NCBI RefSeq assembly: GCF_003334305.1
Contig: NZ_QOWS01000063.1
Strand: one strand, 5' to 3'
From: Escherichia coli
Lineage (GTDB): Bacteria > Pseudomonadota > Gammaproteobacteria > Enterobacterales > Enterobacteriaceae
DNA length: 1,046 nt
Shown here: piece after piece, positions 1 through 1,046 of the stretch
Position numbering within the stretch: the first letter of the stretch is position 1
How the letters are laid out: every line of letters begins with the position of its first letter
Translations under genes and position numbers: made by a program
The notes under the pieces: generated by a model
The model's database searches: none
What the model was told of the DNA's origin: nothing
Seen by the model: the letters and a program-made list of their open reading frames with translations, nothing else

Positions 1-92
1 GGCGCGCCAATTCTTACACCTGCCGAACCCTGGACAATGGGACCGCCATACTGAGTCATATCTCCCTGACGCGCCGCTGGTTTTCCGCTCAT
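1..92 (-). CDS. rhs: Rhs-family protein with N-terminal PAAR domain, first 30 codons only (3'-partial; continues beyond the left edge). Likely a T6SS cargo toxin carried on the VgrG tip.
   Basis: Seen in sequence: ATG at 92..90 (minus strand) opens a frame reading MSGKPAARQGDMTQYGGPIVQGSAGVRIGA(P) with no stop before the window edge. It contains a literal P-A-A-R tetrapeptide at residues 5-8 followed by a GG-x-I-x-x-GS-x-x-V-x-IG pattern typical of PAAR-domain starts. From memory this N-terminus matches that of Escherichia coli Rhs core proteins; the specific paralogue cannot be assigned from 30 residues. It lies 66 bp downstream of the vgrG stop on the same strand. This ORF is absent from the supplied track because it is short and runs off the edge. 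Confidence 0.85.
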   Translation of the reverse strand, partial: MSGKPAARQGDMTQYGGPIVQGSAGVRIGA

Positions 93-99
93 GATTCAA

Positions 100-105
100 T
101 TCCTT
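100..105 (-). promoter_or_regulatory. Shine-Dalgarno sequence for the rhs start codon
   Basis: Minus-strand AAGGAA (plus-strand ttcctt at 100-105) sits 7 nt upstream of the ATG at 92..90 (spacer ATTGAAT), a good match in composition and spacing to an enterobacterial ribosome-binding site. Confidence 0.55.
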
Positions 106-158
106 CTTCTGTTTATTTTTAATGCTTGTTTGTTACTGAATACCGAACAGGTACGGGA

Positions 159-1046
159 TCAGTACTCTCTCATATCCGGCGTATCCTGCTTTTCATCAGG
201 GGTCTTCGGTGGGGATTTCGAGGCTGCACAGTTCCAGTTAATCAACAGTGAGTCACCATTAACCTGCTCCTTACCCTGCAAATGAATTTTTGTGCCGTTG
301 AGAAAAATTTGTCCGTCCTTCGTCAGCACCAGCCTTGCCTTACCACAGCAGAGCTCCAGATGCTCACCGGCGGAGTAAATCGCGGTCTGCCCGGTATCAT
401 CCTTTTTCGTTTTACCAACGGTGAAGGTAACGTTATTTCCGACTTTGACGTCATAACCCAGCCCGACCCTCAACGATTTATGCAAACCGATCTGCGAGGA
501 CTGCATCAGAGCCACCGAAGTGTTCATAATGCCACCTACCGTCGTCTGGTACGCCACGCCCACGGTCAGCGCACGAACAAGTCCAATCGTTTCCACCTGA
601 ACAGAACCCACGTTAATGATCTGGTTACTGCCCACCGTCTCTATCTGGTTAACGCCCACCGTCTGTATCTGATTGTTGGTAACCGCAATCATCTGATTGT
701 TGCCAATGGTCTCAGCATGGTTGTTTATCACATCCGTGGTGCGGTTATTCAGCACCTCGGTGTTCATGTTCTTCTGCGCGTGGATGTAGACCTGTTCTTT
801 CCCTGTCGCATCGTCAAACTTCAGTTCATTAAACCCGCTGCCCTTATAGGTTTTCGAACGAATGGTCATCTGCGTCTTTGTTCCCGGCAGGCTGCCGGGT
901 GTGCGGTTTTCCTGGTGGTAGGTACGCCCCATAATAATCGGCTGGTCCGGATCGCCGTTGAGGAAGTCCACAATCACCTCCTGACCCACACGCGGTATCG
1001 CCAGGTGGCCAAAACCGGTGCCTGCCCACGCCTGTGCCACACGGAT
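159..1046 (-). CDS. vgrG: T6SS spike protein VgrG, C-terminal portion (5'-partial; N-terminus lies beyond the right edge). Stop codon TGA at 159-161.
   Basis: Seen in sequence: the 293-aa ORF 159..1040 stays open to the window edge (codons 1041-1046 read I-R in frame; codon 1038-1040 is GTG, so the track's M is an internal Val). The translation contains the VgrG/gp5 OB-fold region motif (R)VAQAWAGTGFG...PRVGQEVIVDFLNGDPDQPIIMGRTY, then regularly spaced Val-Gly octapeptide repeats (TTDVINNH/AETIGNNQ/MIAVTNNQ/IQTVGVNQ/IETVGSNQ/IINVGSVQ/VETIGLVR) typical of the gp5-like beta-helix, then a ~100-aa C-terminal region ending ...SKSPPKTPDEKQDTPDMREY*. Family assignment is from recalled knowledge of VgrG/Rhs-associated vgr proteins; no search was run. 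Confidence 0.92.
   Translation of the reverse strand: MRVAQAWAGTGFGHLAIPRVGQEVIVDFLNGDPDQPIIMGRTYHQENRTPGSLPGTKTQMTIRSKTYKGSGFNELKFDDATGKEQVYIHAQKNMNTEVLNNRTTDVINNHAETIGNNQMIAVTNNQIQTVGVNQIETVGSNQIINVGSVQVETIGLVRALTVGVAYQTTVGGIMNTSVALMQSSQIGLHKSLRVGLGYDVKVGNNVTFTVGKTKKDDTGQTAIYSAGEHLELCCGKARLVLTKDGQIFLNGTKIHLQGKEQVNGDSLLINWNCAASKSPPKTPDEKQDTPDMREY
573..740 (-). repeat. Intragenic 24-nt (8-codon) tandem repeats encoding the VgrG gp5-like beta-helix, seven units
   Basis: Seen in sequence: consecutive 24-nt units at 573-596, 597-620, 621-644, 645-668, 669-692, 693-716 and 717-740 each encode an octapeptide ending in Q/H/R with V/I-G spacing. Units 621-644 (ctggttactgcccaccgtctctat) and 645-668 (ctggttaacgcccaccgtctgtat) match at 21 of 24 positions. 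This is a coding repeat inside vgrG, not an independent element. Confidence 0.7.

Follow-up and report, generated by a model that had tools for sequence, protein, structure and literature searches.

The vgrG–rhs junction of an Escherichia coli RhsE-type island: a plain spacer, no chaperone gene and a short-N-terminus Rhs

How is an Rhs effector loaded onto a VgrG spike, and from which transcript is it made, when the two genes lie almost back to back and no chaperone or adaptor gene separates them? This question is raised by a 1,046-nt stretch of Escherichia coli DNA (hereafter the window, meaning the whole stretch that was analyzed), in which both genes, vgrG and rhs, lie on the minus strand. 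Its features, in window positions, are the following.

159..1046, minus strand: 3' part of vgrG, the last 295 codons (293+ residues) and the TGA at 161-159, from the ORF list
619..671, minus strand: 24-nt tandem repeat in vgrG, 2.2 copies (Tandem Repeats Finder, period 24, 89% matches)
93..158, minus strand: intercistronic vgrG/rhs spacer of 66 nt, 34.8% GC, A-rich, unstructured, without terminator or promoter consensus
101..105, minus strand: Shine-Dalgarno AAGGA of rhs, 8 nt 5' of the ATG, from the sequence
1..92, minus strand: 5' end of rhs, the first 30 codons of an RHS element core protein of the RhsD/E subfamily, from the translation
6-89, minus strand: single PAAR repeat, Rhs residues 2-29, from alignment, with the letters PAAR as residues 5-8 (69-80)

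The vgrG-encoded part of the window comprises a gp5-like beta-helix, the Val-Gly repeats and then a C-terminal extension running to ...PDMREY. The 24-nt repeat corresponds to the octapeptide Val-Gly repeat (translated ...NNQIQTVGVNQIETVGSNQIINVG...) that gave Vgr its name. The name was reportedly coined by Wang, Zhao & Hill in 1998 for genes upstream of RhsE and RhsG. Its attribution to that 1998 paper appears in print as ref. 36 of PMC2660368. The rhs reading frame opens at the ATG at 92-90 and encodes the N-terminus MSGKPAARQGDMTQYGGPIVQGSAGVRIGA; a start further upstream is impossible because an in-frame TGA lies at 98-96, only 6 nt away. Two plus-strand ORFs over the spacer (91..285 and 126..251) were set aside as mechanical, since they are antisense to the well-supported vgrG and rhs frames.

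E. coli strain A7 (NZ_CP028767.1) contains the window with 100% identity, and there the 41-kb context is the classical RhsE site: yncH on one side, vgrG–rhs–dsORF-h1–ISAs1 in the middle and pptA on the other. The three island proteins (VgrG, 702 aa; Rhs, 1417 aa; dsORF-h1, 149 aa) are all intact in A7, and the ISAs1 element (H-repeat) is a remnant. VgrG, scored on the full 702-aa gene in region L001, matched NCBIfam TIGR03361 at 627.5 bits (cutoff 186.35) and the Pfam families Phage_GPD, Phage_base_V and Gp5_trimer_C, and Rhs matched the RHS_core equivalog NF041261 at 2675.8 bits (cutoff 2000), with residues 1-1257 on model positions 1-1261. At least 80% of the window was found in 2713 of 5426 complete E. 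coli genomes, and 2648 carried the vgrG–rhs junction itself, counted with a 200-nt probe centred on the junction at coverage of at least 80% and identity of at least 98%. A PADLOC search with four proteins gave no match.

Two further vgrG–rhs junctions in the A7 genome serve for comparison. In the cusS island, vgrG (632 aa) is followed after 27 nt by the gene of a DcrB-related protein (153 aa) and, after another 19 nt, by rhs. The Sakai orthologue of the 153-aa protein matches Pfam DcrB (PF08786, E 2.7e-27), a family that has been equated with DUF1795/EagR (PMC7216683; STEC O22:H8 preprint). The Rhs of this island starts ...PPAARLGDEIQHKSFLGALAGAVLGAIVTIAEGCLIMAACATGPYALVLVPALMYA..., with AARLGDEIQH followed by transmembrane segments and further PAAR motifs, and thus has what is, by its predicted features, the textbook combination of AARxxDxxxH, transmembrane domain and PAAR. 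This Eag-linked rhs (L004 27498-32014) is annotated as frameshifted, its DcrB/DUF1795 and vgrG neighbours being intact. The other junction lies at aspV, in a complete T6SS cluster (tssB to tssM, two hcp; L010, which is 945001-990000 of NZ_CP028767.1), where vgrG (713 aa) and the gene of an RHS element core protein are separated by a featureless 75-nt spacer (z = +0.67) and the chaperone gene is again absent. Elsewhere in the cluster, a 73-aa ORF between tssC and tssB is a tssC fragment, and a 303-aa hypothetical protein adjoining hcp gave no NCBIfam match.

Among the 5426 genomes, the window type of junction occurred in 2648, the Eag type in 2179 and the aspV type in 2056. Because of these counts, the chaperone-less layout is to be seen as one of two standard E. 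coli layouts and no oddity. The first-pass annotation of this DNA had treated the arrangement as unusual; that view has to be given up, the more so as the layout is in print (10.1101/2024.03.05.583533; PMC7216683). Adjacency of vgrG and rhs at RhsE has been known for decades, and a 2009 catalogue lists E. coli Rhs loci both with a contiguous vgr gene and without one (PMC2935791). The absence of EagR has been stated in recent E. coli papers: in EDL933, rhsE lies downstream of its own vgrG, and eagR (z0706) lies directly upstream of rhsF (PMC7216683); in STEC O22:H8, island 1 is vgrGO1–eagR–rhs and island 2 is vgrG–rhs (10.1101/2024.03.05.583533). Further, a review credits Ma et al. 2017 with setting EagR-chaperoned Rhs-CTs against a distinct “neighborless” family (PMC6730261). 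The absence of a chaperone gene is, in short, real, already described and normal for this Rhs class.

The spacer itself had been described, from its letters, as a gap of 66 bp with about 35% GC, A-rich towards rhs and free of any GC-rich stem followed by a T run, and this description proved accurate throughout. It is exactly 66 nt long, with 34.8% GC against 51.8% for the whole window; the coding strand carries A at 28 of the 66 positions and at 17 of the last 30, and the longest T run is 2. There are stops in all three frames and the gap is too small for a gene, leaving no chaperone or adaptor gene between vgrG and rhs, as had been claimed. A consensus scan, which non-canonical promoters escape, found no terminator-like site and no sigma-70-like -35/-10 pair anywhere in the window on either strand, and Rfam gave no match for the whole window at E <= 1. 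The fold of the spacer RNA, at -5.1 kcal/mol (z = +0.29), is no more stable than those of shuffled sequences, so that the expected lack of a stable hairpin was borne out. As a positive control, the identical scan and fold picked up the hcp 3' terminator of the paralogous T6SS cluster (14-bp stem with 8 GC pairs and a T run; -28.6 kcal/mol, z = -3.36), at a position that matches a terminator predicted downstream of hcp3 in EHEC, where RT-PCR places hcp3 and vgrG3 in separate operons (PMC13141884). Over the island as a whole, the coding strand shows promoter-like sites 5' of vgrG and nowhere else; on that strand, no terminator-like site follows until past the end of dsORF-h1, the immunity gene. 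Read from the absence of intervening signals, this pattern is consistent with one vgrG–rhs–dsORF-h1 transcript.

A larger fold of 141 nt (window 60-200, minus strand) encloses the spacer and the start codon, and within it the last vgrG codons, CCUGAUG, pair with rhs codons 7-9, CGUCAGG. At -30.8 kcal/mol (z = -1.83), equaled by 6 of 200 shuffles, it was judged not significant as a real structure, and the pairing of vgrG and rhs codons is probably chance.

When the two chaperone-less junctions of A7 are compared, conservation is confined to the final ~22 nt of the spacer, as CAGAAGGAATTGA(A/T)TC ATG; the AAGGA Shine-Dalgarno sequence sits within CAGAAGGAATTGA(A/T)TC, the sole conserved part, and the 5' two-thirds of the spacer diverge freely between the paralogues. 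Further, CAGAAGGA is also found upstream of orphan rhs genes in Enterobacter, Salmonella (salamae) and Yokenella. The constraint on the spacer is that of translation initiation, the remainder drifting, and a conserved promoter or regulatory RNA in 93-158 is argued against because only the Shine-Dalgarno-bearing end is conserved. In K-12 rhsD, which has ybbP upstream, homology sets in precisely at the ATG, so it is vgrG, and not rhs, that the spacer accompanies. The gene contexts of distant relatives, mostly orphan rhs without DUF1795, are uninformative on the spacer.

The island also offers no chaperone at a greater distance. The flanking sequence, scanned for DUF1795, DUF4123 and DUF2169 genes in line with the first-pass annotation, held none of them in the island (41-kb context), whose content is only vgrG, rhs, dsORF-h1 and the ISAs1 remnant; the adaptors of the DUF4123 (Tap) and DUF2169 (Tvp) kinds are thus absent from this vgrG island as well. 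No further ORF of at least 80 aa lies in its intergenic space, and the unannotated ones overlap genes in other frames. The dsORF-h1 product is of Eag size, yet it matched neither Pfam nor NCBIfam families and does not resemble the DcrB/Eag protein of E. coli. In the examined A7 regions there is one DcrB/DUF1795 gene, ~0.96 Mb away and beside another Rhs, and DUF1795 was found upstream of rhs in none of 10 examined gene contexts of this Rhs class.

Eag chaperones bind the transmembrane helices of their effectors and the prePAAR helix (Ahmad et al. 2020, PMC7773334). The absence of a transmembrane segment, previously noted for the visible N-terminus, extends to the full-length Rhs (1417 aa): by a Kyte-Doolittle hydropathy scan, not TMHMM, the highest 19-residue mean is 0.87, against 2.13, with 19 windows of at least 1.6, in an Eag-linked control Rhs (Sakai ECs_0605). 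The N-terminus reads AARQGDMTQY, with P5-A6-A7-R8 as the literal motif and Y15 at the prePAAR histidine position, both as previously read from the translation. Relatives were drawn from a search of 1.84 billion representative proteins, many of them full-length; among those with a short N-terminus, this position is Y in 112, K in 70 and H in 4, so that the would-be Zn-binding position of the Rhs class is Y or K. In the window Rhs we found neither the AARxxDxxxH signature nor transmembrane domains, a downstream PAAR or an adjacent DUF1795/DcrB gene. The sequence evidence supports the earlier proposal that the window Rhs does not have an Eag-dependent architecture, because it would offer Eag neither the transmembrane helix nor the prePAAR helix to which it binds. 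Every refuting condition of the first-pass annotation that lends itself to computation came out in favour of its interpretation.

The same N-terminus bears on what had been called a PAAR motif. The four letters are there; a full PAAR domain is not. Pfam PAAR_motif (PF05488) aligned with Rhs residues 2-29 only, at non-significant E values of 0.14 and 1.4, and within residues 1-400 Pfam placed DUF6531 at 46-123 and RHS repeats after residue 46, with no PAAR domain downstream of the N-terminus. PDB searches matched residues 2-29 to the final PAAR repeat in VCA0105 (4JIV) and likewise in SalCis10. Three long-form relatives (P0205, P0221 and P0171) carry a full three-repeat PAAR directly before the ACSxCPGG...PVNPxLGAKVL junction, and in alignment with such relatives Met1 of the E. 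coli Rhs falls just before repeat 3; Pfam PAAR_motif is recorded for a long-form relative, not for the short-form ones. The short form is dominant, the first Cys lying at 30-39 in 210 of 232 proteins that carry the junction motif. Judged by these alignments, the Rhs “PAAR” is a single repeat equivalent to repeat 3, about one third of the three-repeat cone (Shneider et al. 2013), and not a full domain.

The usual one-chain cone is impossible for this Rhs because its N-terminus has a single repeat, and one PAAR repeat is not known to suffice for capping a VgrG trimer. We tentatively consider, as an unlikely alternative to ordinary docking, that the Rhs class caps the spike by an undescribed route, using repeat 3 only, with its Zn-ligand position lost. 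Up to three Rhs molecules might each contribute one repeat on the threefold VgrG tip, or the ~45-residue extension of the chaperone-less VgrGs (ending PDMR(E/Q)(Y/F)) might share in the docking; against the latter, a Pfam search of the VgrG C-terminus brought up nothing PAAR-like. Capping may also involve some undescribed type of accessory factor or a PAAR protein encoded elsewhere; the annotation of the aspV T6SS cluster in A7 includes no orphan PAAR gene. If true, undescribed capping would cover a very common Rhs class (E. coli RhsA-E type, Tse5).

The VgrG side of the junction was compared among the three A7 paralogues (L001 18780-20888, the window gene; L004 32523-34424, cusS; L010 24819-26960, aspV). 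All three are at least 90% identical up to residue ~525-537 and then continue into one of two unrelated C-terminal modules; in the window, the stretch concerned is 159-~700 (minus strand). Specifically, the window VgrG shares 90% identity with its aspV counterpart from end to end. With the Eag-linked VgrG it shares 93%, but only as far as residue ~537, and the remaining ~170 C-terminal residues are unrelated. The Eag-linked VgrG stops at ...GGSVFIN; the chaperone-less ones are ~45 residues longer and end PDMR(E/Q)(Y/F), the extension in the window VgrG being residues ~655-702 (window 159-300, minus strand). Across the three junctions, the module that a VgrG carries goes together with the kind of N-terminus on its Rhs and with whether there is an Eag gene, as would be predicted by the rule that the VgrG C-terminus specifies cargo. 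The modules switch in the Val-Gly repeat region, which suggests recombination there. As a separate observation, S. enterica subsp. salamae has a PDMRQY-stop remnant (L006 ~5911-5933) just upstream of an “orphan” rhs that starts at 6001.

Taken together, we hold it quite probable that 93-158 is a plain spacer in a vgrG–rhs–dsORF-h1 effector module at the RhsE site, with read-through transcription, no need of Eag and direct docking on VgrG. RNA polymerase starting upstream of vgrG would read through the spacer, since nothing in it can terminate transcription, and ribosomes would initiate independently on rhs through AAGGA in an A-rich, unfolded leader. The window Rhs would need no Eag-type chaperone because Eag/DUF1795 shields N-terminal transmembrane helices and this Rhs has none. 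It belongs, like Tse5, to a short-N-terminus class with a single PAAR-like repeat, a CxxC-PGG linker and a DUF6531 plug, and its exposed PAAR-like repeat would dock on the tip of the cognate VgrG, with docking specificity contributed by the VgrG C-terminal module (Val-Gly repeats and the ~45-residue extension). The aspV-encoded T6SS of the same genome would then fire the loaded spike.

Against read-through stands the view that rhs is transcribed separately, its own promoter lying either in the AT-rich spacer or within the 3' end of vgrG, so that there is no single operon. We regard this as decidedly unlikely. Besides the base composition of the spacer, it can appeal to the occurrence of this rhs class without vgrG in K-12 rhsD, Enterobacter, Citrobacter and Yokenella; such orphans imply other promoters, and an internal promoter in the vgrG 3' end may thus exist. 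However, no -35/-10 pair was found in the window, nor on the coding strand from vgrG to the end of rhs, the conservation of the spacer is limited to the Shine-Dalgarno region with the 5' two-thirds differing between paralogues, and homology to K-12 rhsD starting at the ATG means that the spacer is no portable promoter. Another view is that a required chaperone or adaptor is encoded elsewhere, whether the cusS-island DcrB/DUF1795 protein or an accessory protein of the aspV cluster, which seems quite improbable. The DcrB gene is packed, with gaps of 27 nt and 19 nt, between its own VgrG and Rhs genes, the VgrG linked to it has a different C-terminal module, and both Eag targets, the transmembrane helices and the prePAAR helix (PMC7773334), are absent from the window Rhs; the characterized relative Tse5 is, moreover, without a reported chaperone (PMC10684867). 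What speaks for a chaperone at a distance is that A7 does encode a DcrB/DUF1795 protein, that the aspV T6SS has uncharacterized genes such as the 303-aa hypothetical without a family match, and that new accessory families are still emerging (PMC13373197, PMC11582642).

A further view takes the island for an Rhs element that is silent or in decay and no longer serves secretion, in which the absence of a chaperone would be mechanistically meaningless. ISAs1 remnants flank Rhs elements, the Eag-linked Rhs of A7 is frameshifted, and the K-12 RhsE copy, which we take to be a relic, counts on the same side. In EHEC, Rhs and T6SS proteins were not detected in vitro, and the T6SS is H-NS-silenced with extra post-transcriptional control in vitro (PMC13141884). 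Nevertheless, we find decay highly improbable, given that A7 has intact copies of vgrG (702 aa), of rhs (1417 aa) and of the gene that follows them, that the junction is at least 98% conserved in 2648 genomes and that the A7 genome encodes a complete T6SS.

As for the cargo, the toxin tip (L001 ~24720-25208) follows a PxxxxDPxGL-type boundary and contains HEFAH, with a weak match to Peptidase_M91 (E 0.0022). The neighbouring dsORF-h1 (L001 25220-25669) has a signal-peptide-like start, MMKYLMVLLSLFSGSVLG, and no family match. The HEFAH tip and this signal-peptide-like start together hint at a target exposed to the periplasm.

The value of the locus lies in an internal contrast rather than in the spacer: in one genome, VgrG cores that are >90% identical carry two different C-terminal modules, one paired with DUF1795 and a prePAAR-TMD Rhs and the other directly with a short-N-terminus Rhs. 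E. coli thus lends itself well to studying what it is that docks an Rhs on the spike when no chaperone is involved, and the single PAAR repeat at the Rhs N-terminus may be a more useful observation than the spacer finding.

Among known systems, the closest in locus type is the E. coli RhsE element, or “vgrG island without EagR” (Hill-lab Rhs elements; EDL933; pathogenic island 2 of STEC O22:H8), with which the window island shares the yncH/pptA site, the order vgrG–rhs–immunity–H-rpt/ISAs1 and the RhsD/E-type core family NF041261. The structure is the same, and between strains only the C-terminal toxin tip and the downstream gene vary; the tip that the window island brings to this RhsE-type locus is the HEFAH, weakly M91-like peptidase.

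The closest solved relative of the protein is Tse5, in which residue 1 of the shell chain (8cp6_B) corresponds to P48 of the Rhs (PVNPMLGSKLLP vs PVNPLLGAKVLP), the aligned Rhs stretch being P48 VNPLLGAKVLP. Both have a PAAR-like N-terminal fragment of ~47 residues, then a P-V-N-P shell start and a DUF6531 plug, and in P. aeruginosa vgrG1c (PA2685)–tse5 (PA2684)–tsi5, as here, the Rhs effector adjoins its cognate vgrG and a chaperone gene is absent. The 47-residue N-terminal fragment of Tse5 has been described as “PAAR-like” or “cryptic PAAR-like” and as lacking a membrane-binding module; its residues 1-29 are disordered and unresolved, residues 30-47 are anchored inside the cage, and the protein undergoes cleavage at K47|P48 and leaves the cell together with VgrG1c (PMC10684867, PMC9637101, PMC7376260). 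No chaperone has been reported for Tse5 (PMC10684867). By alignment with K47|P48, the E. coli Rhs should cleave itself at N47|P48 (L001 21093-21098, outside the window), and its residues ~30-47, which include a conserved C36xxC39-PGG, should be threaded into the cage; cleavage at 47|48 and dependence on VgrG have been tested for Tse5 only. The two proteins differ in that the Tse5 N-terminal fragment is reportedly without a literal PAAR motif, whereas the E. coli Rhs retains P5-R8, and in their toxins, Tse5 being a pore former and the E. coli Rhs carrying a putative metallopeptidase.

Class I prePAAR effectors (vgrGO1–eagR–rhs, Salmonella Rhs1–SciW, Serratia Rhs–EagR, Enterobacter RhsA–EagRA) are likewise Rhs cages encoded downstream of a vgrG paralogue; they share with the window Rhs a start with AARxxD, and the VgrG cores are >90% identical in A7. 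Unlike them, the window Rhs is without the DxxxH histidine, the transmembrane domain, the full PAAR and the DUF1795 gene, and the C-terminal ~170 residues of its VgrG are unrelated. Orphan PAAR proteins (E. coli c1882, V. cholerae VCA0105) resemble it in that Rhs residues 2-29 align with a PAAR repeat of 4JIV. In Rhs proteins with a full N-terminal PAAR, the domain takes the equivalent place in the protein, of which the window Rhs has one repeat of three. Finally, cargo of the DUF4123 (Tap) and DUF2169 (Tvp) kinds, such as RhsP2–Tap14, differs from the window island, which is without an adaptor gene and whose effector bears its own PAAR-like element in place of an adaptor tether (PMC11582642, PMC13373197); there too, the VgrG C-terminus sets the effector.
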